This document shows, piece after piece, positions 26,841 to 56,838 of a stretch of 64,000 nt of DNA (position 1 is its first letter; each line of letters starts with the position of its first letter). A model generated the notes under the pieces. That model did not search any database and was not told the DNA's origin. It worked only from the letters and a program-made list of their open reading frames with translations. The translations under genes were made by a program, and so were the position numbers. Location of the stretch: the NCBI GenBank assembly GCA_947259585.1, contig CAMYMV010000002.1, forward strand, positions 3,925 to 67,924. The letters are read 5' to 3'. The stretch is from an uncultured Gemmatimonadales bacterium (GTDB lineage: Bacteria > Gemmatimonadota > Gemmatimonadetes > Palauibacterales > Palauibacteraceae).

Positions 26841-27611
26841 ATGAGCCGGCCACTCATAGCCGCCAACTGGAAGATGCACCTCGGACGCGCGGAGGAGGCC
26901 CTCGGTCTCGTGCGTCGGATCCGGCACCCCCTGGGCAGGATCGACGGCGTGGAGGTCGTGGTGTGTCCGCCCTTCACGGTTCTGCCTCTCCTGGCCGAGG
27001 TGCTGGGGCCGTCGCCGATCGCGCTCGGTGCCCAGAACATGCACTGGGCGGAACGGGGCGCTCATACGGGGGAAGTCTCACCGAGCATGCTGGCCGGGCT
27101 CTGCCAGTACGTGATTCTCGGACACTCGGAGCGTCGCGCCACCGGCGGCTCGACGGAGGACGACGCCGCCATCAACCGGAAGCTGAAGGCCGCCTTCGGC
27201 GTCGGCCTGATTCCGATCGTCTGTGTCGGCGAGAGCGGCGAGCAGCGCGAGGCGGGCGCGACCGATGACGTCGTGCGATCCCAGGTCTCCCTCGCGCTGG
27301 CCGGGCTCGAGCCCGACCAGGCCCGCCGCTGCGTTATCGCTTACGAGCCGGTCTGGGCGATAGGCAGCGGCCGGCCCGCCACAGCAGCGGAGGCGAATCG
27401 CATCATCGCGTTGAGCGTCCGGGGGGCGGTGGCCGAGGGGTTCGGCGAGGAGGTGGCGCAAGCGGCGAGGGTCCTCTACGGCGGAAGCGTGCTTCCGGAC
27501 AACATCGCGGCCTTCACGGCCATGCCCGACATCGACGGAGCCCTGGTGGGCGGAGCCAGCCTCGGTCCCGAGTTCGTGGAGCTGGTGCTACGCGTTTCCG
27601 CCGAACGCTGA
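26841..27611 (+). CDS. tpiA: Triosephosphate isomerase
   Basis: AANWKMH and AYEPVWAIGSGRPAT signatures. 256 aa. The listed 366-aa ORF has a non-coding N-terminal extension. Confidence 0.95.
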   Translation: MSRPLIAANWKMHLGRAEEALGLVRRIRHPLGRIDGVEVVVCPPFTVLPLLAEVLGPSPIALGAQNMHWAERGAHTGEVSPSMLAGLCQYVILGHSERRATGGSTEDDAAINRKLKAAFGVGLIPIVCVGESGEQREAGATDDVVRSQVSLALAGLEPDQARRCVIAYEPVWAIGSGRPATAAEANRIIALSVRGAVAEGFGEEVAQAARVLYGGSVLPDNIAAFTAMPDIDGALVGGASLGPEFVELVLRVSAER

Positions 27612-27628
27612 CGGCCCGGTAGGCGGCT

Positions 27629-28273
27629 TCAGGTCGAAGGCGCGCAGAGGACCGTCTCGAACGATAGATACGCGATGCGCCCGAGCGGCCCCCCCTCGTA
27701 GTCCGCATCGATACGGGCGTCGAGGATCCTGAAGAGACCGGATCCTACGGGCATCGCCGACAGCGTATGTCGGGCTCTTTCGATCCGATCCGCCGCTCGA
27801 TCGCCAGGCCACAGCAGGACATTCACGGCGGCAGCCATCGTTTCGTAGTCTTCATCGTTCAAGACGAACGAGAAAGACCGCTCGCTCATCTTCACGGCCG
27901 CTTCCGCCGATATCCCATAACCGGTGTCAATGTAGCGAGCGTTGGAGAAACGATATGGAGGCGTCGCGACCCAGGAGTATTCTTTCTGCCGCGTATCGGC
28001 GCTGCGTACCTCGATCGTCCAGCCGGGTGGATTGGGCGGGCTCTCGGGGGTGGGAGCGAGCCGGAAGAGGAGGTTCGGTGCGAACCGCGCCTCGAATCGC
28101 TCTCCGGCGACGACCTGGCCAGCCAGCTTGACCGTGTCGCAGGTCGCGGGCAATCGCTCCTGCGTCGTGGCCATGTCAGGCGCGGCCAGGCCCGCCACTA
28201 CAACGAGCAGGGCAGCAAAGTGGAGAGCCGAGGCCTCCTGCTTCGAGCCGAGGCGCCGGGCGTGGCGTATCAC
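27629..28273 (-). CDS. Hypothetical exported protein; last gene of the BMC operon (start overlaps the upstream BMC-P stop)
   Basis: Signal peptide ALHFAALLVVVAGLAAPDMA. ATGA-type overlap with 28270..28542. Confidence 0.5.
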   Translation of the reverse strand: MIRHARRLGSKQEASALHFAALLVVVAGLAAPDMATTQERLPATCDTVKLAGQVVAGERFEARFAPNLLFRLAPTPESPPNPPGWTIEVRSADTRQKEYSWVATPPYRFSNARYIDTGYGISAEAAVKMSERSFSFVLNDEDYETMAAAVNVLLWPGDRAADRIERARHTLSAMPVGSGLFRILDARIDADYEGGPLGRIAYLSFETVLCAPST

Positions 28274-28542
28274 TCTGCCAGAGTCACCTCGTCGACCACG
28301 CCGACGATGACCGCGCGTACTGCGCCCGGATCCAGGTCCAGGATCTGACGTGCGCCATTCCCTTCGTCGATCACCAGGACCGTGTCGCCGGGACCGGCCT
28401 GAGCCACGTCCACAGCGATGTCGTAGTCCCCGCTCTCCCGGCCGTCAAGGTCGAGCTGATCGACGAGCAACAGCCGTCGGCTCTGGAGGTGGGAGATCTT
28501 GATCGTAGAGACGACGGACCCCGCCACGCGGCCGATATACAT
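28270..28542 (-). CDS. BMC vertex protein BMC-P (EutN/CcmL/PduN family), paralog 3
   Basis: MYIGRVAGSVVSTIK...LLLVDQLD...VAVD..QAGPGDTVLV..G: canonical EutN_CcmL pentamer motif. Confidence 0.85.
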   Translation of the reverse strand: MYIGRVAGSVVSTIKISHLQSRRLLLVDQLDLDGRESGDYDIAVDVAQAGPGDTVLVIDEGNGARQILDLDPGAVRAVIVGVVDEVTLAE

Positions 28543-28544
28543 GG

Positions 28545-28865
28545 TCAGGCGTCCTCCGCCACGCGGTGCCAGGTAGCGGTCGGTCCGGGGGCGTCCCCCG
28601 CGGTGTCGACTTCATCCACGAGTCCCGTGATCGCCAGGTCCACCGGTACGAACACCTCCGGGAGCGCCTGGGCGCCCTCGCGACTGGCCACCATGAACAC
28701 CAGGTGGCCGGGACCCGCCTGGGCGGTGGCATCGGCGGCCACCTGGGGCTCGCCCACAGGACTCAGCTCACGGTCCAGCGGCTGAACGACGAGGAGCTTG
28801 ATGCCCGCGAGCCCCTCGTACTTTCGGGTCGCCACGACCGTACCGATCACGCGCCCGAACTTCAC
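28545..28865 (-). CDS. BMC vertex protein BMC-P (EutN/CcmL/PduN family), paralog 2
   Basis: MKFGRVIGTVVATRKYEGLAGIKLLVVQPLD...AADATAQAGPGHLVFM. Confidence 0.8.
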   Translation of the reverse strand: MKFGRVIGTVVATRKYEGLAGIKLLVVQPLDRELSPVGEPQVAADATAQAGPGHLVFMVASREGAQALPEVFVPVDLAITGLVDEVDTAGDAPGPTATWHRVAEDA

Positions 28866-28899
28866 CGCGCTCTCCCCGGCACGCCCTCGAGAGGTCGCC

Positions 28900-29490
28900 T
28901 CACAGGTCTCTCAACACGCGGGCGCCGAAGCGACTCGCGTCCGAAACGTTCTCCCACATCTCGGCGTGCAGCTGCGAGATGACGACCTGTCGCACGAGCA
29001 GATCCGGCCGCTCCAGCGCGCCGACGCCGATCTCCACGGCGGCTTCCACATCGGCCACGAGCCCGGAGTAGAGGACGATCCCCTTTCCGCCGAGGCCGTC
29101 GGCCAGGCGGACCTCGACCAGGCGAACATCGGCCCCTTTCACTCCCGCATCCGCGGCGTGGATCGCCGAGGCGACGGTGGTCGTCTCGACGACGCCCAGA
29201 GCGTCCGCGGTGCCTGGCACCCGGCCGCCGCCGATGGCGTCCACGACCTCGGAATGAACGTTGGGAAGGAACACGAGGTCGAGGACCGTATCTCCGCCTG
29301 CCTCGCGTCCCGCATCCAGCGACTCCTGGACTTCCGCGACGGTACCGCCGATCAGAACGAGATAACGGCCCGGCTGCACCGTCCCGGCCCGGATGACGGC
29401 GATATCGGCCCGCTTGACCATGGCGTCGGCCGCCTCGATGCCTACGGCGATGCTGCTGAAGTCGATGAGGGCGAGGGCCGGGTCGATCAT
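28900..29490 (-). CDS. BMC-T shell protein with tandem BMC domains (PduT-like, no Cys)
   Basis: Two successive PF00936-like BMC domains: [26 protein letters not shown]...GG, then ALGVVETTTVASAIHAADAGVKGADVRLVEV...GLGGKG. Confidence 0.75.
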   Translation of the reverse strand: MIDPALALIDFSSIAVGIEAADAMVKRADIAVIRAGTVQPGRYLVLIGGTVAEVQESLDAGREAGGDTVLDLVFLPNVHSEVVDAIGGGRVPGTADALGVVETTTVASAIHAADAGVKGADVRLVEVRLADGLGGKGIVLYSGLVADVEAAVEIGVGALERPDLLVRQVVISQLHAEMWENVSDASRFGARVLRDL

Positions 29491-30953
29491 ACGATTCGGA
29501 ACGAGTCCTTCAGCACGCAGCGGCGGATACGGCTGAAGCTGATCGGGTTGGTGATTCCCTCTCCCGTCGGGCTGGCGATCGTGAAGGAGCAGAAGCCCTC
29601 GCCGCCGTAGCCGAGTCCGTCGAAAGACGCGCCGTTCTTGACGAAGATGCTGCAGTCCATCTCACGTGCCATCCGGCTCAGATGGTCCAGGTTCTTGGAG
29701 TGCATGACGGCGGTGTGCCTGAACCCGTGCTCCGCGGGCTTGGCGAGATCGATCCCCTCGTCCGCGTCCCGAACTCTCACGAGCGGCATGATCGGCATCA
29801 TCTGCTCGGAGAAGACGAGCGGGTCGTCCCGGTCCACCTCGGCCAGCACCAGCCGCACATCATCGCTTGCATCGATTCCGATCTCGGCCAGAAGCACCCC
29901 CGCGTTCTTGCCGATAAAATCGGCGTTCATCGTGCCGTGCCGTCCGGGCGATGGCGTGTCCTTGAACAGGGAGCCACGCAGCCGCTCCAGCTGGCGGCCG
30001 TCGATCTCCACCGCCCCGTGCGCGCACATGGCCGCCTTGAGGTCGTCGGCGATCGAGTCGGCGGCGAAGACCTCCTTCTCGTCGGTGCAGATGATGTTGT
30101 TGTCCAGCGAGGCTCCGCGGACGATGTCGCGTCCGGCCTGCGCCAGATCGGCGGTCTCATCCACGACCACGGGCGGGTTGCCCGGGCCGGCGCAGATCGC
30201 GCGCTTCCCGCTCTGCATCGCCGCGCGGACGACGCCGATGCCTCCCGTGACCACCAGGAGGTTGACCCCCTTGTGTCCCATGATCTGGCCCGCTGTCTCG
30301 ATCGTCGGCTCGGCCGTGGCGCAGACCAGGTTGGCGGGACCTCCCGCCTCGACGACGGCGTCGTTGACCAGCTGAACCGTCAGGTTGGAGCACCGCTTGG
30401 CTCCGGGATGGGCGTTGAACAGGACCGCGTTGCCCGCCGCCAACATGCTGACAGCGTTGCACACCACGGTCGAGATCGGGTTCGTGCTCGGGATGATGGA
30501 GCCGATGAGCCCGTACGGCGCGAACTCGACCACCGTGAGCCCGCCGTCGCCGCTCCAGGCGCGCGTGTCGAGAAACTCGGTACCCGGAGCCTTGTTCGCG
30601 TTCAGGAGGACCTTCTCGATCTTGTCCTCGTAGCGACCCATTCCGGTCTCCGCCCACGCCTCGTAGGCCAGGCGTTGGGCGTTCTCGCGCATCGTCCGGC
30701 GGACGTGGGCGATCATCCGCTCGCGGACCGAGAGGGGAAGGTCCTGGAGATGCTCGTACGCCCGCCGCGCGGCGTCTACCGCCGAGTCAACGTCGGGAAA
30801 CAGGTTGTCGCCATGGCGCAGCTCGGTCGGGGCGGGTGGCGGCTCGACCGCCTGCTTGGGCTCGGGCCTCGGGCCGTGCCCGACCCGTTGACCCTGCCGC
30901 AGCTCGGACATCACACGTTCGATGACCGCGTCGATCTCGGCCGCTTCCATCAT
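29487..30953 (-). CDS. CoA-acylating aldehyde dehydrogenase (EutE/PduP family) with N-terminal encapsulation-peptide-like helix
   Basis: ALDH fold with catalytic Cys in [12 protein letters not shown] and a GAG nucleotide loop. First 20 residues ([20 protein letters not shown]) form an amphipathic helix, as in BMC-targeted PduP. Confidence 0.9.
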
Positions 30954-31249
30954 CCGTCACGAGCCTTGTCGTACTTCACGTCGCCGTCGACCTCGAGGGT
31001 GTCGACGATCGCCATGATCACGCCGTCACAAGGGCGCCGGTCCGTCATCTCGGTCTGTCGGGCGGCGCTACCCGTGGCGTACAACACGACCTCGCCCATG
31101 CCGGCTCCGATGGCGTCCGCCGCGACGCGGTAGCCCGACGTCTTCTTCCCTTCGACGTCGAGCTGCCTCAGAACGAGGAACTTCAGGCCCTCGAGAGAGG
31201 GTTCCTTACGTGACGCGACGAGCGTTCCGACCACTCTTCCTAGCAGCAT
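30950..31249 (-). CDS. BMC vertex protein BMC-P (EutN/CcmL/PduN family), paralog 1
   Basis: [31 protein letters not shown]...[21 protein letters not shown]. Confidence 0.8.
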
Positions 31250-31255
31250 CGGCCG

Positions 31256-31582
31256 TTACTTCTTCGAGGTCTTGGACGCCTGCCCTCCCTGGCGACCCAG
31301 CGGCAGGGTACGATCCACGTTGCCGTGCGGGCGCGGAATCACGTGAATGGCCACGAGCTCGCCGACCTTCTCCGCACCGCGGGCCCCGGCCTCGACCGCC
31401 GCCTTCACGGCGGCCACATCTCCGCGCACGACGGCGGTCACGTACCCTCCGCCGATCTTCTCGTAGGCAACGAGGTCTACCTTGGCCGCCTTAACCATGG
31501 CGTCCGCGGCCTCGACCATCGCCGGATAGCTGCGCGTCTCGATCATGCCCAGCGCTTCGACCGCACCGTACTCCTCAGCCAT
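31256..31582 (-). CDS. BMC-H hexameric shell protein (PduA/EutM/CcmK type)
   Basis: Canonical BMC domain: [58 protein letters not shown]. Confidence 0.9.
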
Positions 31583-31669
31583 TCGTCCCTCCCGACGTGG
31601 GTTGTTTCCTCATGCTCCACACATCATCCAGTACTTGCTTCAGTTATTGCTTCAGATCCAGGTCGTGCA

Positions 31670-32308
31670 TCAGGTCCGTCGCTTCGTATCCACCACCCGT
31701 CCTTCGACGCCCTCGATGGCGGCGACGGCCGCTCCGTATCCGGCCATGATGTCTCGCTCCTCGCCGCCCAGGTACACCCGCCCGAAGCTTCCGAACGCGC
31801 GGACATCCAGGATGTTGATGTCCGCTTCCTTCTCTGCCTCGTTGGCGGCGAGCGACGCGTATCCGGCCGGCTCCACCTCGAGGACGTAAAGGGTCTGGCC
31901 GGCCAACAGCATGTGGCCGAAGCGCATGCGGTTGACCAGCTGTACCTGGTGGGCGTCGACGTGACGGATGATCTGGCTCGACACGACCCTCGGCTTGATC
32001 CGGTCCGATTCCTGGACCTCCAGGGCCTGCAGGATCGCCGCGCCCGCCGCCCGGACTTCCGCCTGTATTTCGTGGTGGACCTCCAGCAAGCCGAACAGGC
32101 GCTCGACGATCTGCATCCCGGGCCGGACCCGGGTGGATTTGAGCGCGATGTCGGTGATCCGGTTGATCTCGATTCCGGGCGAGATCTCAACCCAGAGTGA
32201 CGTGTCACCCGGAAGCGGGAGGAATCCGCGCGCCACCGTTCCCAGGTATGCCGCGTGCTGCGGCTGGAGGCTGTCGAGAAAAACGTAGGTGCGGAGATCA
32301 ACAGTCAT
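31670..32308 (-). CDS. Probable permuted tandem-BMC shell protein (EutL/PduB-like BMC-T)
   Basis: Two BMC-like half-domains: [20 protein letters not shown]..., and [56 protein letters not shown]. They resemble the EutL C-terminal repeat (ATYGIDAALKSADVQLATY). Lacks the PduL RHIH motifs and class II aldolase motifs. The assignment is an inference. Confidence 0.55.
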
Positions 32309-32317
32309 GGGAGCTCC

Positions 32318-33187
32318 TCACGAGTCAGTTCCCTCCACGATCTTCACGCTCGCACTGGCGCCGATTCGGGTGGCGCCGGCTTCGACCATTCTTTGCACGT
32401 CCTCGCGGGTTCGAATCCCGCCGGACGCCTTCACGCCGATCTTTGGCCCGACCACGCGACGCATGAGTGCCACGTCTTCCGCCGTCGCGCCTCCGGGGCC
32501 GAATCCCGTGGAGGTCTTCACGAAGTCTGCGCCGGCGACCTTGGCGAGCTGGGAGGCCGCGACCTTCTCATCGTTCGTGAGCAGTGCGGCTTCGATGATC
32601 ACCTTCAGGATACCCCCACCGGCGTGGACCGCCGTGGCGACGGAGGCGATGTCATGCTCCACGAGCTCGTAGTCACGTGACTTCAGCGCCCCGACGTTGA
32701 TCACCATGTCGACCTCTTTGGCGCCGTCGCGCACCGCTTTCTGCGCCTCGAACGTCTTCGCCTCCGTGGAGGTGGCGCCGAGCGGAAAGCCGACGACCGT
32801 GCAGGTGAGCACCTCGCTACCCTTGAGGAGATCGGCGCACAGTTTCACATGGGATGGGTTCACGCAGACCGACGCGAAGCCGTGCTTGCGCGCCTCGTAG
32901 CACAGCTGCGCGATCTCGTCGTGGGTCGCGTCGGGCCTCAGGAGCGTGTGGTCGATGAGATGGCTCAGGCTCCCGTCGGCGGGCACGATGCCCAGGGTGC
33001 TGGCGACCCGATCGGCGCCGGCCTTGACCACCGGCTGCACTCGATCGACGTAGTTGCGTCGTGAGAGCGGCGTCTCGAGGCCCGATGCCTCGCCGCCGAC
33101 GTCCAGACGGCCCTCCTCGACGAGGACCATCACCTCGTGCGTGATCTGCTCGATGATGCGCTCCAGCGTCGCCTCGTCCAACTTCAT
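32318..33187 (-). CDS. deoC: Deoxyribose-phosphate aldolase (DERA) with ~75-aa N-terminal extension (putative encapsulation peptide)
   Basis: Core is collinear with DERA ([20 protein letters not shown], catalytic Lys in [20 protein letters not shown]). N-terminal [26 protein letters not shown] is amphipathic and absent from free-standing DERAs. Confidence 0.9.
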
Positions 33188-33230
33188 CGCCCGAGACTCC
33201 CGGCGGGCCCGTGCCTGCCCCTGCTCACGC

Positions 33231-33980
33231 TCATGCTCTTAGGAACCGACGCTCGATGTCCATGATCTTCCCCACGCGCCGGGCGTGGCGCTCGCCGCCG
33301 GAAGGCGTGCGAAGCCAGGTCTCGACGATCCGCCGGCTCAAGCTCGGGCCGGTCAGGCCGGCGCCGAGCGTCAAGACGTTGGCCGCGTTGTGCTCCCTGC
33401 TGTTGACCGCCGTGGCCTCATCGTAGCACATCGCGGCTCGGATACCGGGCACCTTGTTCGCGGCCATGCAGGACCCGATCCCCGCGCCGTCCACCAGGAT
33501 TCCCCTCCACGCCTCGCCCCGAGCCACCAGTTGGGCCACCGACAGAGCGATATCGGGGTAATCGACCGATTCCGTGCTGTCGGTGCCGCAGTCGAGCACC
33601 TCGTACCCCAGCTCGCGTATCTGCGTCTTGAGACCCTCCTTCAGCTCGAATCCGCCGTGATCCGCTCCGATGGCGACGCGCTTGGACCCGGCGGGCCCGG
33701 AGGAGGCCGCCTCGAGGGCTGCCGGGAGTGGCCGTACCGGAGCGGATGAGCCCGCACCTCCGGCGGGCAACAGCGTGATCCGTCGCTCCATCGCGGCCTG
33801 ACGGGCCAGCGGAGTGACCATCGGGCTGGCCGGAAGCATGAACTCGCCGCCGGCAGGGACGTCGTGCAGGTCCTGCTGAGTAATCAGGGTCCGACCAGCC
33901 GGCCCTTGAGGATGGGTCTTCCCCACGGTCCGGTAGACGACCCGGCGAACCATCTCGCGGACCCGCTGCTCGTCGGTCAT
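33231..33980 (-). CDS. rpiB: Ribose-5-phosphate isomerase B (RpiB/LacAB family) with ~100-aa N-terminal extension
   Basis: C-terminal 150 aa match RpiB ([52 protein letters not shown]). N-terminal extension contains an amphipathic helix [17 protein letters not shown] plus a conserved-looking [39 protein letters not shown] segment. Start taken at MTDEQ to avoid overlap with tetR. Confidence 0.8.
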
Positions 33981-33982
33981 CG

Positions 33983-34699
33983 TCACCAGTAGCGCCATCC
34001 GGAAGCGTCAGCCGTTTCCGCCGGTTCCGCCGCCTCGACCGGTTCCAGAAACGAGTCTCCCTCCGCCGACCTGAACGCCTCCGCGGGTTCGCGGCGTGAG
34101 TAGCTCGCCAGCAGCCGGAAATAGGAGCGAAGCTGGGCCACGGCGGCGTCAAACGGATCCACGGAACCGGCCGCCCGGGCCTGCATCACTCCCCCCTCCA
34201 TCACGGCAAGGACCAATCGGGACAGGCTCTCCCGGTCGAGTTGGGCCGGGAGTCGGTCATCGGCGGCCGCGAGCCATGTCTGAACGCGGCCGGTCCATGC
34301 CGCGAAGTATTCGTTCATGAGAGCTCTCGCCCTCGGTTTTCTGTCGCCGAGCTCCAGAGCGAGGTTGCCGACGGGGCACCCTCTCGTGCATCCGCTGACC
34401 AGCAGTCCTCGCCGGTAGACCTCCAACAGGGCGAAAACCCGCTCGATCGGGTCGGAGCTCGCGCCCTCGGCAGGCAGGAGGATAAACGGCTCGAGAAGAG
34501 CGAGATGCCGCTCCAGGACGCCGATCAACAGGGCGTCCTTGCCCGGGAAGAAGTGATAGAGACTGCCGCTGTTGACGCCCGCGCGACGCAGTATCGTGGA
34601 GATACCCGTCGCCGAGTAGCCCTGCTCGTGGAAGAGTCGGGCCGCTTCCTCCAGAATCCGCTCTCTGGTCTCGGATTTCGGCGTCATTTGATTGAGCAA
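33983..34699 (-). CDS. TetR/AcrR family transcriptional regulator, first gene of the BMC operon
   Basis: N-terminal HTH RERILEEAARLFHEQGYSATGISTILRRAGVNSGSLYHFFPGKDAL. Likely true start is the ATG at 34687 (MTPKSE...); the listed start is a TTG at 34699. Confidence 0.85.
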   Translation of the reverse strand: MLNQMTPKSETRERILEEAARLFHEQGYSATGISTILRRAGVNSGSLYHFFPGKDALLIGVLERHLALLEPFILLPAEGASSDPIERVFALLEVYRRGLLVSGCTRGCPVGNLALELGDRKPRARALMNEYFAAWTGRVQTWLAAADDRLPAQLDRESLSRLVLAVMEGGVMQARAAGSVDPFDAAVAQLRSYFRLLASYSRREPAEAFRSAEGDSFLEPVEAAEPAETADASGWRYW

Positions 34700-34703
34700 T
34701 CAA
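34688..34703. promoter_or_regulatory. AT-rich inverted repeat TTGATTGAGCAATCAA abutting the tetR start codon (putative TetR operator O1)
   Basis: 7-bp perfect arms with a 2-bp spacer. AT-rich in a 68% GC genome. A second near-identical copy lies 116 bp upstream. Confidence 0.5.
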
Positions 34704-34803
34704 TAAACATTCCGGGCAATTCGACGGTTCAGAGCACCTGTCGAGAGAGATTACGCCCGTGCGCCCGACTCCCGGTCAACAGGACCCCGACGAGAGCCAT
34801 GGC

Positions 34804-34819
34804 TTGATTGATCAATCAA
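34804..34819. promoter_or_regulatory. Perfect 16-bp palindrome TTGATTGATCAATCAA (putative TetR operator O2) in the tetR upstream region
   Basis: Perfect palindrome. Both copies are followed by similar ~20-nt flanks (TAAACATTCCGGGCAAT vs TCATAATTCGCGGCAAAT). Confidence 0.5.
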
Positions 34820-34888
34820 TCATAATTCGCGGCAAATGTCAAGTCGCGGGTCGGATTCGGCCCGCTGGATCAGGTGCACCAAAGCGTC

Positions 34889-35464
34889 CTACCCGGAATC
34901 CAGCGCTCGACGCGCCGCCAGTGCCTCCGTATACCATAGGAGCTCGTCGATGAAGCGTTCAGCGCTCTTCTCGTACGCCGGATCCTCGGTCTCTCCCTCC
35001 TCATCGAAGCTGGATTGGACCTGCCTCACCGGAAACTTCGCCGGGATGGGAAGGGCGCCCAGCGAGAGAACCACCTGGCGGAGCTGGGTAAGAGCGCTCA
35101 GGCCGCCCCACGGCCCCGCCGACACGCTGATGATGCCGACGGGCTTCCGGCGGTATTCGGGGAGCAGGTGGTCCAGCGCATTCTTGAGCACTCCCGGATA
35201 CCCGCTGTTGTACTCCGGCGTGACGATCACCAGCGCATCGGCGCCGGCGATCCGTTCGCTGAACTCCGTCAGGCCGGGGGGTGGGTCGTCACGCTGCCGC
35301 AGTCGCTCCTCCATGATCGGGAAGTCGTATTGCGCCAGGTCGAGGAGGTCGGACTCGATCCCGTCCCTCTCCGCGAGTCGCCGCTGTATGAAGCGGGCCA
35401 CCTTGGGGGTCTGACGGCCGCGCCGCGTGCTGCCTACGATCACCGGTATGTTGAAAGCTCCCAC
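34889..35464 (-). CDS. NAD(P)H-dependent FMN reductase family oxidoreductase (YieF/ChrR/ArsH-like)
   Basis: PF03358-like flavodoxin fold: IPVIVGSTRRGRQTPKVARFI..., LVIVTPEYNSGYPGVLKNALD. Confidence 0.85.
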   Translation of the reverse strand: MGAFNIPVIVGSTRRGRQTPKVARFIQRRLAERDGIESDLLDLAQYDFPIMEERLRQRDDPPPGLTEFSERIAGADALVIVTPEYNSGYPGVLKNALDHLLPEYRRKPVGIISVSAGPWGGLSALTQLRQVVLSLGALPIPAKFPVRQVQSSFDEEGETEDPAYEKSAERFIDELLWYTEALAARRALDSG

Positions 35465-35550
35465 GGAAGCCGCTCCTCCACCTTGAGTTGTCCGAGTCCT
35501 CGAGCCGACTATGGGTCGAGAGAGTTCAGCCGGAGCCGGCCGAAAGGGGG

Positions 35551-36090
35551 TTACCAGCTCCCGGGCTCCCCGCCCGGATCTCCGAGTTTCCGGAACGACG
35601 GGGCCTCGGGATCTCGAACGCTGCAGTTCGCCTCGAACCGAAGGGTGGTACCCCCGTCGGGCCGATCGCCGCTCTTGTACATGTCGTACGTGAGCAGGAC
35701 CGGAGCGCTGTTCCTAACGAAGCTGCCGGGCACGACATCGACCTCCATCGTCAGCACGCCGCCCGCCGAGGCGGGGCGGGGAATCCACGCGACGCCCGCG
35801 TCCGACCGGATCACGACCTCGTCGGTGTCCTTCCACTTTCGAAGGCTCACGTTCACCATATTGTATCGTCCGCCGGTCGCCTCACGGGTGACTCGGTTCG
35901 CCTCCGTCGTAAAGCCGAGCTCGGGCCGCGAGGCGTCGTCACAGAGGATCCGGATCTTGTATTCGTTCTCCTCGGTCCGAACAACCGCAGACCCCTCCGA
36001 CAGCTCGCGCCGCGACTCGTCCTGGGCAGCCCCGACCGAGGGTGTGAGCAGCAGCACCGACAACACCCAGAGCGAGTTTCTCATAGTCAT
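35551..36090 (-). CDS. Hypothetical secreted protein
   Basis: Signal peptide MTMRNSLWVLSVLLLTPSVGAAQ. No motif recognised. Confidence 0.45.
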   Translation of the reverse strand: MTMRNSLWVLSVLLLTPSVGAAQDESRRELSEGSAVVRTEENEYKIRILCDDASRPELGFTTEANRVTREATGGRYNMVNVSLRKWKDTDEVVIRSDAGVAWIPRPASAGGVLTMEVDVVPGSFVRNSAPVLLTYDMYKSGDRPDGGTTLRFEANCSVRDPEAPSFRKLGDPGGEPGSW

Positions 36091-51606: not shown

Positions 51607-52665
51607 TTGACCGGCCCCCGCGAGCCGGATGAGGTCACTGGCGAGGAGACCGAGCGTCTGGCGGCCCTGCTCCACGCCGTCGAGGACGCTGAGGAGCTGC
51701 TGGTCGTCACGCACGACAACCCCGATCCGGATGCCCTCGCCTCCGCCGCCGCGCTCGGCTTCCTGCTTCAACACTGTGAGGGTCTCAGGACCAGGCTCGC
51801 CTTCGGAGGCATCGTGGGCCGGGCCGAGAACCAGGCACTGATCCGCGAGCTCGGGGTCGACTTCGAGCGGCTAGGCGGAGCGAACGGAATCAGCCCCGGG
51901 ACGATCGTCGCGCTCGTCGACACGCAGCCGCGGGCGGGAAACAACTCGCTGCCGGCCGGCCGGATCGCCAACGTCGTCATCGACCATCACCCCCGCCGTC
52001 CCGAGACCGAGGCGTCGCCCTTCGCCGACATCAGACCCGAGTATGGAGCGAACTGCTCGATTCTCATCAAGTACCTGCGGGCAGCGGAGCTGGAGCCCGA
52101 TCGCCGGCTGGCCACCGGCCTGTTCTACGGCATCCAGACCGAGACCGCCGACCTGGGACGCGAGGCCTCACGGGCGGACGTAAGCGCGAGCCTGTACCTG
52201 TATCCCCGCATCGATCCGGAGGCCTACTCCCGCATCCTCCACCCTCCACTCCCGAAGGGCTACTTCAGGTCGGTCCATCAGGCGTTGGAGGAGGCCCGCC
52301 GCTACGGGGGTGTCATCATCTCGCCCGCGGGGAAACTGGTCTATCCGGACATGGTGGCGGAGCTGGCCGACCTGCTGATCCGTGCGAAAGACACGGAGTG
52401 GGCGGTCGCCGCGGGCACGTTCGGTGGCCGGCTCCTGATATCGGTCCGCAGCTCGAAGCCGGTCGCCCATGCCGGCGATCTCGTTCGGGGCGTCATCGGT
52501 GATCGGGGATCGGCCGGTGGGCACGGCATGCTGGCCGGCGGACAGATCCCGCTCGAGGGCCTCTCCGAGGAAGAGGTCGAGCGCGTGTCGGCGTCGGTTC
52601 TGGAGGATTTCCTGGAAGCGCTCGGGGCGTCCGGCGAGGAGTCCGAATCGCTGACCGAGCGATGA
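51607..52665 (+). CDS. DHH/DHHA1 phosphoesterase, NrnA-like (oligoribonuclease / pAp phosphatase), paralog 1
   Basis: VTHDNPDPDALASAAAL, DHHP motif, C-terminal DHHA1 with GGGH. Confidence 0.85.
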   Translation: MTGPREPDEVTGEETERLAALLHAVEDAEELLVVTHDNPDPDALASAAALGFLLQHCEGLRTRLAFGGIVGRAENQALIRELGVDFERLGGANGISPGTIVALVDTQPRAGNNSLPAGRIANVVIDHHPRRPETEASPFADIRPEYGANCSILIKYLRAAELEPDRRLATGLFYGIQTETADLGREASRADVSASLYLYPRIDPEAYSRILHPPLPKGYFRSVHQALEEARRYGGVIISPAGKLVYPDMVAELADLLIRAKDTEWAVAAGTFGGRLLISVRSSKPVAHAGDLVRGVIGDRGSAGGHGMLAGGQIPLEGLSEEEVERVSASVLEDFLEALGASGEESESLTER

Positions 52666-55809: not shown

Positions 55810-56838
55810 TTGCGGTCGGCGATCGAGGCAGCCCGGCACCCGGTGCTGACGACCCACATCAATGCAGACGGCGATGGAGCGGGGAGCGAGGTTGCCCTGG
55901 CACTCTACATGGAGCGCCAGGGGGTGAAGCCCGCGATCGTCAACCCGACGCCGTTTCCGGAGACCTTCAAGTTTCTGCTGCAACACCTGACCCCGTGGTC
56001 CTGCAAGGCCGAAGAGGGGCGGCGAGCCCTGGAGAGGGCCGACCTCATCGTCGTTCTGGACACGTCGGAGCCCTCGAGGCTCGGGGACGTGTATCCCGCG
56101 ACGCGAGGCCGGCGAATCGCGGTCATCGACCACCACCCCTCCACGCCGCAGTCGATCGGGGATCCCGCGATTCGCGACGCCTCGGCGTGCGCGACGGGAG
56201 AACTGATATACGACCTTATCGCCAAGCCGGATGCGCCGAATGCATCGGTGTCGCGGCCGGAGGCGGAGGCGCTCTACGTGGCCATCGTCACCGATACGGG
56301 ATCCTTCCGGTTCGCGAACACGACCTCCCGGACGCACGAGATCTGCGCGAATCTGTTGAGGGCGGGCGTCGATCCTCAGGAGATGTACAGGCAGCTGTAC
56401 GGGCAGGTCACCGACGAGCGCCTGGAGCTGCTGCGTCGGGCGCTCTCCAGCCTCGAGCGGGACCCCGAATGGCCGCTGGCGTCGATTACCCTGAGGCGCC
56501 AGGATTTCCAGGAGTCGCGTGCGGCTTCGGCCGATCTCGAGGGCATCGTCGAGCATGCCCGACAGCTCCGCGGCGTGGAGATCGCCGCGCTCTTCCGGGA
56601 GCTGCCCGACAAGTCGACCAAGGTCTCCCTTCGATCGAACGGAGAGGCCGACGTCGCCGCGATCGCGCGCGAGCATGGGGGCGGGGGGCACACGAAGGCG
56701 GCGGGCGTGCACATCAAGGGGCCGCTCGAGGCGTCGCGCGCCGAGGTGCTGGCCAGCGCCAGACTGGCGCTTCGGAAGAAGGGGCTAGGACCGACGCCCC
56801 CCCCCAACGGGGATCCGGAGGCAGCGCGGGGACCTTGA
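55810..56838 (+). CDS. DHH/DHHA1 phosphoesterase, NrnA-like, paralog 2
   Basis: LTTHINADGDGAGSEVAL, DHHP, DHHA1 GGGH. Confidence 0.85.
   Translation: MRSAIEAARHPVLTTHINADGDGAGSEVALALYMERQGVKPAIVNPTPFPETFKFLLQHLTPWSCKAEEGRRALERADLIVVLDTSEPSRLGDVYPATRGRRIAVIDHHPSTPQSIGDPAIRDASACATGELIYDLIAKPDAPNASVSRPEAEALYVAIVTDTGSFRFANTTSRTHEICANLLRAGVDPQEMYRQLYGQVTDERLELLRRALSSLERDPEWPLASITLRRQDFQESRAASADLEGIVEHARQLRGVEIAALFRELPDKSTKVSLRSNGEADVAAIAREHGGGGHTKAAGVHIKGPLEASRAEVLASARLALRKKGLGPTPPPNGDPEAARGP

Follow-up and report, generated by a model that had tools for sequence, protein, structure and literature searches.

A probable SPU3-type microcompartment operon of a Gemmatimonadales bacterium and the EutQ-like module of its RpiB-like protein

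Introduction

The sugar-phosphate-utilising (SPU) class of bacterial microcompartments (BMCs) was named in 2014 (PMC4207490) and by 2021 comprised >280 loci from 26 phyla in seven subtypes, placing it among the most widespread BMC types (PMC8217296). The present study analyzes one such operon in a 64,000-nucleotide stretch of DNA from an uncultured Gemmatimonadales bacterium (NCBI GenBank assembly GCA_947259585.1, contig CAMYMV010000002.1, positions 3,925 to 67,924 of the forward strand), here called the window, in whose numbering all coordinates are given. The subtype that matters most for comparison is SPU3, whose enzymes are an aldehyde dehydrogenase (AldDh) and members of pfam01791 and pfam02502, sometimes fused, with the RpiB-like protein (RPI) first, and in which the AldDh and the deoxyribose-phosphate aldolase (DERA) carry N-terminal encapsulation peptides (EPs). 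The SPU3 shell is built from one standard BMC-H, a triplet of BMC-P, a CcmP-like BMC-T(dp) and a BMC-T(s) that has neither a PduS partner nor a pore cysteine, and the hosts include Gemmatimonadetes (PMC8217296). All SPU loci have the DERA extension and the P triplet, every RPI carries a replacement of the catalytic Cys by Asp, and subtypes without a phosphotransacylase (PTAC) typically have a T(dp) (PMC11585597). Absence of PTAC is typical of SPU2, SPU3 and SPU6.

Experimental knowledge of the class comes from SPU6, from which purified DERA cleaves 2-deoxyribose-5-phosphate (dR5P), a DERA-RPI complex has been shown, and purified RPI had negligible ribose-5-phosphate (R5P) isomerase activity (Dwyer et al. 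2024, PMC11585597), and from a 2025 preprint reporting that a shell of SPU type, taken from Asgard archaea, self-assembles (PMC12747264). The stretch of RPI between its helix and its RpiB domain has been described as a less conserved, unstructured linker (PMC11585597). In another BMC protein, EutQ, helices H1 and H2 (amino acids, aa, 9-41) bind the shell and other helices bind the EPs of cargo; deletion of eutQ(9-41) parts the cargo from the shells (Yang et al. 2025, PMC12487888).

Results

The locus is very probably an ordinary and complete SPU3-type metabolosome operon, a subtype assignment that rests on the published description and on likeness to a Chloroflexi locus already labelled SPU3, and the part of it that possibly is new is a module of about 45 aa in its RPI. 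Eleven minus-strand open reading frames (ORFs) occupy positions 27629-34699, all confirmed in place, in the 5' to 3' order TetR, RPI, DERA, T(dp), BMC-H, BMC-P1, AldDh, T(s), BMC-P2, BMC-P3 and an ORF of 214 aa. Intergenic distances run from -16 to +87 nucleotides (nt), with a 4-nt overlap at three junctions. Ten of the genes have Pfam or NCBIfam domain matches, leaving only the 214-aa ORF without a family. The genes, with a convergent neighbor, are as follows.

33983-34699, minus strand: TetR regulator, first gene of the operon (PF00440, 3e-16; TetR_C_13, 4.8e-16)
33231-33998, minus strand: RPI, RpiB-like (PF02502, 1.6e-51, covering aa 108-245 only)
32318-33187, minus strand: DERA, the SPU signature enzyme (TIGR00126 deoC, 279.8 bits, cutoff 117.3, covering aa 74-284 only)
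31670-32308, minus strand: BMC-T(dp), CcmP-like permuted tandem protein, double-stacking, with a gated pore (NF053796, 367 bits, cutoff 340)
31256-31582, minus strand: BMC-H, the single hexamer protein (PF00936, 1.9e-30)
30950-31249, minus strand: BMC-P paralogue 1 (PF03319, 2.8e-27)
29487-30953, minus strand: AldDh, acylating, EutE/PduP-type (PRK15398, 625.8 bits, cutoff 403)
28900-29490, minus strand: BMC-T(s), PduT-like tandem protein (two PF00936 domains, 2e-36)
28545-28865, minus strand: BMC-P paralogue 2 (PF03319, 8.7e-23)
28270-28542, minus strand: BMC-P paralogue 3 (PF03319, 1.3e-21)
27629-28273, minus strand: exported protein of 214 aa (no Pfam match)
26841-27611, plus strand: triosephosphate isomerase (TPI), convergent neighbor (PF00121, 4.8e-78, from aa 4)

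A PF00936 BMC-H (1.9e-30) and three PF03319 proteins (1e-21 to 3e-27) within 3.3 kb identify a BMC locus, and the family matches, which far exceed chance, bear out a preliminary description of the window, made from the sequence alone, that had proposed a minus-strand BMC operon with H, T and P shell classes and three P paralogues. Five of the six shell candidates it had put forward match PF00936 or PF03319; the sixth, T(dp), is recognised by NF053796 instead and reaches only 20 bits against PF00936, under the gathering score, because its domain is permuted. Every item of the published SPU3 description is found here. Those common to all SPU loci are the extended DERA, the acylating AldDh, the P triplet and an RPI with Cys replaced by Asp, and those particular to SPU3 are the CcmP-like T(dp), a Cys-free T(s) without PduS, the N-terminal EP of AldDh and the single standard BMC-H; the order RPI-DERA, the lack of a PTAC and the host phylum agree as well. 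Comparison with catalogued SPU loci thus gives a feature-by-feature match to SPU3, and the SPU class proposed in the preliminary description was right. Two of its accompanying remarks have to be given up, namely that the shell composition is unusual, since the shell set and P triplet are the published SPU3 definition and the SPU norm, and that the class has been catalogued only in silico, since work of 2024 characterised both enzymes, DERA and RPI, from SPU6 (PMC11585597) and self-assembly of an SPU-type shell was reported in 2025 (PMC12747264). The RpiB fusion that it listed is likewise not there: a fusion of RPI with DERA was considered and rejected, the two being separate ORFs 43 nt apart, and in this respect the locus differs from the fused SPU3 loci, of which 12 (PMC8217296) or 20 (PMC11585597) are counted. 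The TetR and the trailing 214-aa gene are lineage-specific, and nothing else of substance separates the locus from SPU3. With the SPU6 locus of Chloroflexi bacterium GWB2_54_36 it shares a DERA extension of ~70 aa, the Cys-to-Asp change of RPI, AldDh, the P triplet, one BMC-H and a T(dp). It differs in the AldDh, which in SPU6 belongs to another branch and has its EP at the C-terminus, against the N-terminus in the window; in the T(dp), blue-clade in SPU6 and CcmP-like in the window; in the T(s), which SPU6 lacks; and in the regulator, GntR in SPU6 and TetR in the window.

Relatives were sought by a scan of one genome per species and by tblastn of all window proteins against 80 loci. The closest DERAs, 96-97% identical, come from Gemmatimonadota/Gemmatimonadales metagenome-assembled genomes (MAGs). 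The identical order RPI-DERA-Tdp-H-P-AldDh-Ts-P-P recurs in >20 loci from Gemmatimonadota, Chloroflexi/Anaerolineales and one Actinomycetes MAG, most of them accompanied by the convergent TPI. In one of the Chloroflexi loci, from RBG_19FT_COMBO_62_14 (locus L013), which has the same order, the shell and AldDh proteins are 66-85% identical to those of the window and the T(dp) 84%; this is the locus labelled SPU3 in the supplementary tree files of Sutter et al. 2021 (PMC8217296).

As judged by alignment to solved structures, the shell is closely related to that of Haliangium ochraceum (HO; PDB 5V74), with the BMC-H resembling HO-5815, the T(dp) resembling HO-5816, and a P triplet in both. The best PDB matches of T(dp) are CcmP 4HT5 (E 2.6e-89) and HO-5816 (E 2e-75), and the Glu-Arg pair of the pore is kept ('VERLFG' aligned with 'IERLYG' of CcmP). 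BMC-H, the sole single-domain PF00936 protein of the operon, matches HO-5815 (5DJB) at E 2.1e-40, and its edge motifs KAAK and PRPH are both standard. T(s) aligns with PduT-type structures at E about 1e-35 and with 5DIH, a 'Microcompartments protein' chain of H. ochraceum, at E 3e-23; it has no cysteine at all and therefore no Fe-S pore. The three BMC-P paralogues are 35-39% identical in pairs (35-38% for P1 with either of the others), P1 directly following BMC-H and P2 and P3 lying adjacent, 2 nt apart. The HO BMC itself has two T(dp) paralogues, split loci and neither DERA nor RPI in its main locus, and its function is not established. The T(dp) also exceeds the CcmP equivalog cutoff. Unlike the beta-carboxysome, the organelle of the window would be catabolic and aldehyde-processing, with no Rubisco or carbonic anhydrase.

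All three enzymes begin with an N-terminal extension, of about 45 aa in AldDh, 73 in DERA and 106 in RPI. Solved homologues, free-standing RpiB and DERA included, align only from aa 45-54 of AldDh, ~73 of DERA and ~102-107 of RPI, and with DERA of Lysinibacillus or Listeria the alignment begins no earlier than aa 67-75, the SPU extension being absent there. Amphipathic helices lie at aa 5-20 of AldDh, 7-22 of DERA and 10-25 of RPI, with hydrophobic moments of 0.62-0.70 against protein medians of 0.24-0.29, and they are conserved among the orthologues of each protein. Alignments, moments and conservation therefore confirm the amphipathic N-terminal extensions that had been noted at the outset. 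In AldDh the helix has the maximum moment of the protein (0.70) and is followed by a Pro-rich linker and by the domain from aa about 45-51. Against the BMC AldDh 4C3S (E 5e-124) the alignment starts at aa 51, keeps the catalytic Cys and reaches aa 485 of 488, leaving no C-terminal extension. In DERA the extension includes the helix and a conserved AGA-R element; alignment with PDB DERAs begins at aa 73, and the catalytic motifs, GVKASGG included, are preserved. These motifs hold the catalytic Asp and two Lys (PMC11585597; established DERA enzymology).

Two observations concern DERA and RPI in other lineages. In loci L022-L036 (Anaerolineae) and L044-L079 (Acidobacteria/Pyrinomonadaceae) the amphipathic helix of the DERA extension is separated from the AGA-R element by a motif with four cysteines, such as CLGCDGQCTEKC; it may bind a metal or an Fe-S cluster, and it is missing from DERA of the clade to which the window belongs. 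L024 and L044 (positions 7894-10864 of L044, from Pyrinomonadaceae chromosome OZ244585.1) have both RPI and DERA in extended form, yet 10 kb of flanking sequence on each side showed no shell gene, and in L044 two Uma2-family genes separate RPI from DERA.

RPI itself is made up of the helix (aa 10-25), the module (aa ~36-80), a disordered linker (aa 80-103) and the RpiB domain (aa 107-250). Its start is likely Met7 (33980), placed there because of the homologue consensus. In the active site the catalytic Cys66 is replaced by Asp and Thr68 by Ala (E. coli numbering), with 'ILVDGAG' aligned to 'IVICGTG' of Clostridium thermocellum RpiB, and the replacing residue, Asp170, is invariant among 43 RPI homologues. 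Loss of the catalytic Cys and Thr gives no support to isomerisation of ribose-5-phosphate; the protein is most likely not an R5P isomerase and should not be classed as one. The chemistry first suggested for the locus included a ribose-5-phosphate branch, which falls away with the Asp and Ala at the catalytic positions, as found in SPU RPIs of negligible R5P activity.

The module lies within the stretch previously taken for a linker. It covers ~45 aa (aa ~36-80; 33759-33893 in the window), follows the pattern LxTxxD...PxG...xxTPLARQxAxER, has invariant positions in the 43 homologues and is present in three tandem copies in the 405-aa RPIs of Anaerolineales. In the AlphaFold2 model its pLDDT is 70-80, against <50 for its flanks. 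Among 1.84 billion representative proteins, the module profile matched 278 at E <= 1e-3, RPIs among them, and the module was found in varied company. It is N-terminal on class II aldolases (E 5e-19) and on genuine EutQ cupin proteins (library-wide E 3e-7 to 7e-7), C-terminal on a PduL-type PTAC, at the C-terminus of eut_hyp-like (flavoprotein-like) proteins that have an EP at the N-terminus, and attached to an ACT-domain protein; it also touches the C-terminus of PduM (TIGR04493, E 4e-5). Proteins listed for the module beside the RPI of the window are P0030, P0045, P0027, P0140, P0215, P0221 and P0239. Over 43 aa the window module and the N-terminus of the EutQ-family protein P0221 have 42% identity, with an hhalign probability of 97.8%, and the module alignment to aa 2-48 of E. 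coli EutQ has an E value of 2.3e-4. On these alignments the module is homologous to that N-terminal part of EutQ which holds the shell-binding helices. Other searches gave little: Pfam found no family in the isolated RPI N-terminus (aa 1-105) even at E <= 1, a word-index homologue search with that N-terminus returned a single uninformative match on a 913-bp contig, and the module profile against PDB sequences had no matches but non-significant ones (E about 1.2), to the E3-binding domain of E2 acyltransferases. This likeness, which recurs weakly with the Pfam family E3_binding (0.04-0.1), was taken as motif resemblance and not as homology. A full-text literature search found no paper connecting EutQ with SPU RPI.

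Homology of the module to EutQ, together with shell binding by H1 and H2 of that protein, leads us to propose that SPU RPI is the shell-cargo adaptor of the organelle, an EP-like helix and one to three modules of shell-binding type joined to an RpiB domain that would hold DERA; for and against this proposal the scales stand about level. Both proteins have the homologous stretch (the H1/H2 stretch in EutQ, aa ~36-80 in RPI), and in both a flexible linker joins it to a globular domain. They differ in that domain, RpiB-like in RPI and a cupin acetate kinase in EutQ, in that no counterpart of the EP-binding helices H3 and H4 of EutQ was identified in RPI, and in that RPI has its own EP-like helix ahead of the module. 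The combination of an impaired enzyme domain with repeated small modules as scaffold is that of CcmM, a logic already invoked for RPI (Dwyer 2024, PMC11585597), while the modules of RPI are unrelated to SSUL.

An alternative explanation would be that RPI is a working isomerase for some other sugar phosphate with the invariant Asp as base, in which case the entry substrate would be additional or different and its isomerised form would be what DERA acts on. The RpiB motifs DHGG, EHN and GG-RH-RR are, like Asp170, invariant in the 43 homologues, an argument for retained ligand binding or catalysis, and RpiB of Mycobacterium tuberculosis uses a Glu base. The possibility was also left open by Dwyer 2024 (PMC11585597). 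Against it, the action of SPU6 RPI on R5P was negligible and no pathway joins an RPI product to DERA (PMC11585597), SPU5 is entirely without RPI, and the build of the protein, with a helix, one to three copies of the module and a linker, is scaffold-like. We consider a catalytic role of this kind unlikely.

Two palindromes lie upstream of TetR and at its start.

34804-34819: perfect 16-bp palindrome TTGATTGATCAATCAA in the promoter region, putative distal operator of TetR
34688-34703: second copy TTGATTGAGCAATCAA, with 1 mismatch, immediately next to the probable start codon (ATG) of TetR

With up to three mismatches, TTGATTGATCAATCAA has 3 matches in the window against 0.01 expected. The palindrome is AT-rich, in a window of 64-70% G+C along its entire length, and a TTGACA hexamer stands immediately upstream of the distal copy. 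TetR occupies the same position in the Gemmatimonadota loci L001-L012, with the exception of L011; neither there nor in the Chloroflexi loci was it detected. Of the 11 Gemmatimonadota loci that have the regulator, 10 repeat both copies at the same positions upstream of the gene and the remaining one (L005) shows only the distal copy; the pair recurs even where TetR is merely 57-67% identical. The conserved double palindrome is a strong candidate and the likely operator of TetR. The start of TetR is likely the ATG at 34687 rather than the listed TTG, and was moved there because the operator palindrome covers the TTG. An NADPH-dependent FMN reductase encoded directly upstream of the operon (34889-35464, minus strand) was tried as a part of the system and rejected, as it lies beyond the operator region and is syntenic in the closest relatives only (L001, L003-L005 and L081).

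At the other end of the operon, the gene for the 214-aa exported protein overlaps P3 by 4 nt and is therefore probably co-transcribed. Apart from this genome, a single sister genome has it after P3; in other close relatives P3 abuts TPI with no such gene between them, and more distant homologues adjoin genes of the S-adenosylmethionine (SAM) cycle and TldD/PmbA genes, not BMC genes. Its G+C at third codon positions (GC3) is below that of the shell and enzyme genes, and the protein has no recognisable catalytic family or fold. It is probably a lineage-specific passenger and not part of the organelle, and, though listed last in the operon by the preliminary description, it is no conserved member of the system. 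Were the protein instead a partner of the organelle, for example in extracytoplasmic substrate supply, the locus would be a new SPU variant. The overlap with the last BMC-P gene and the arrangement kept in the sister genome would fit such a partner, but its absence from the closest other relatives, the company of its distant homologues, the lower GC3 and the lack of a catalytic family or fold make the idea quite improbable.

Elsewhere in the window, two DHH/DHHA1-family NrnA-like phosphoesterases, encoded on the plus strand at 51607-52665 and 55810-56838, stand on either side of a CoaE-PHP fusion and an SNF-family symporter. A part in oligonucleotide turnover is possible; a link to the BMC operon is not among the findings.

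Discussion

Patterns detected in the locus are consistent with an SPU3-type organelle that most likely degrades deoxyribose-5-phosphate from DNA. A TetR repressor on the two TTGATTGATCAATCAA palindromes would keep the operon off until its ligand appears. The shell would be formed by BMC-H, the PduT-like T(s), the gated CcmP-like T(dp) and the three BMC-P, and the N-terminal amphipathic helices would package DERA, AldDh and RPI within it. Once dR5P had entered, DERA would cleave it into glyceraldehyde-3-phosphate plus acetaldehyde, and the retained acetaldehyde would be converted to acetyl-CoA and NADH by AldDh. Neither the operon nor the other window ORFs scanned yielded a PTAC, a PduS or an alcohol dehydrogenase, so the core expected of the Pdu/Eut type (a PTAC, PduL or Pta, and an alcohol dehydrogenase together with the shell) is lacking there, and NAD(H) and CoA/acetyl-CoA would therefore have to pass the shell, for which the T(dp) pore is a plausible route. 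Glyceraldehyde-3-phosphate would exit and meet the TPI encoded alongside, which has no N-terminal extension and is its likely cytosolic sink. RPI would serve as a scaffold that binds DERA and, via its EutQ-like module, the shell. Of the chemistry in the preliminary description, the conversion of dR5P by DERA to acetaldehyde and glyceraldehyde-3-phosphate and of acetaldehyde by AldDh to acetyl-CoA fits the published SPU scheme and stands, the ribose-5-phosphate part being set aside.

Several points weigh against this interpretation. The assignment of dR5P as substrate draws solely on the membership of DERA in its family, and no deo or other nucleoside-catabolic gene that would supply dR5P was found among the scanned window ORFs. 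The published enzymology is that of SPU6 (PMC11585597), whereas the locus here and the other SPU3 members are known from their genes. Cofactor recycling is unaccounted for, and scans of 27000-35600 for sigma-70-type promoters and intrinsic terminators found none. This last result is what might favor a decaying or non-expressed remnant, with its enzymes working in the cytosol, a reading that can hardly be credited given that the simple scans were limited to the sigma-70 consensus, every ORF is intact with coding-type GC3 (0.78-0.89 for the intact operon ORFs), orthologues 57-99% identical keep the gene order across Gemmatimonadota and Chloroflexi, and catalytic, gating and edge motifs are preserved.

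As an SPU3-type metabolosome operon the locus is one more Gemmatimonadota example of a widespread BMC type and leaves existing knowledge unchanged. Being a compact operon of 10 genes with a shell very near the solved HO shell, it could reasonably be chosen for heterologous reconstitution, and the pair of operator and repressor might show which metabolite induces SPU organelles. The module of RPI would give a concrete answer to the question raised for SPU in 2024 about the role of an inactive RPI, namely tethering of cargo to shell. If this is true, BMC types in general would have in the mobile module a second means of encapsulation, beside the classical encapsulation peptide.

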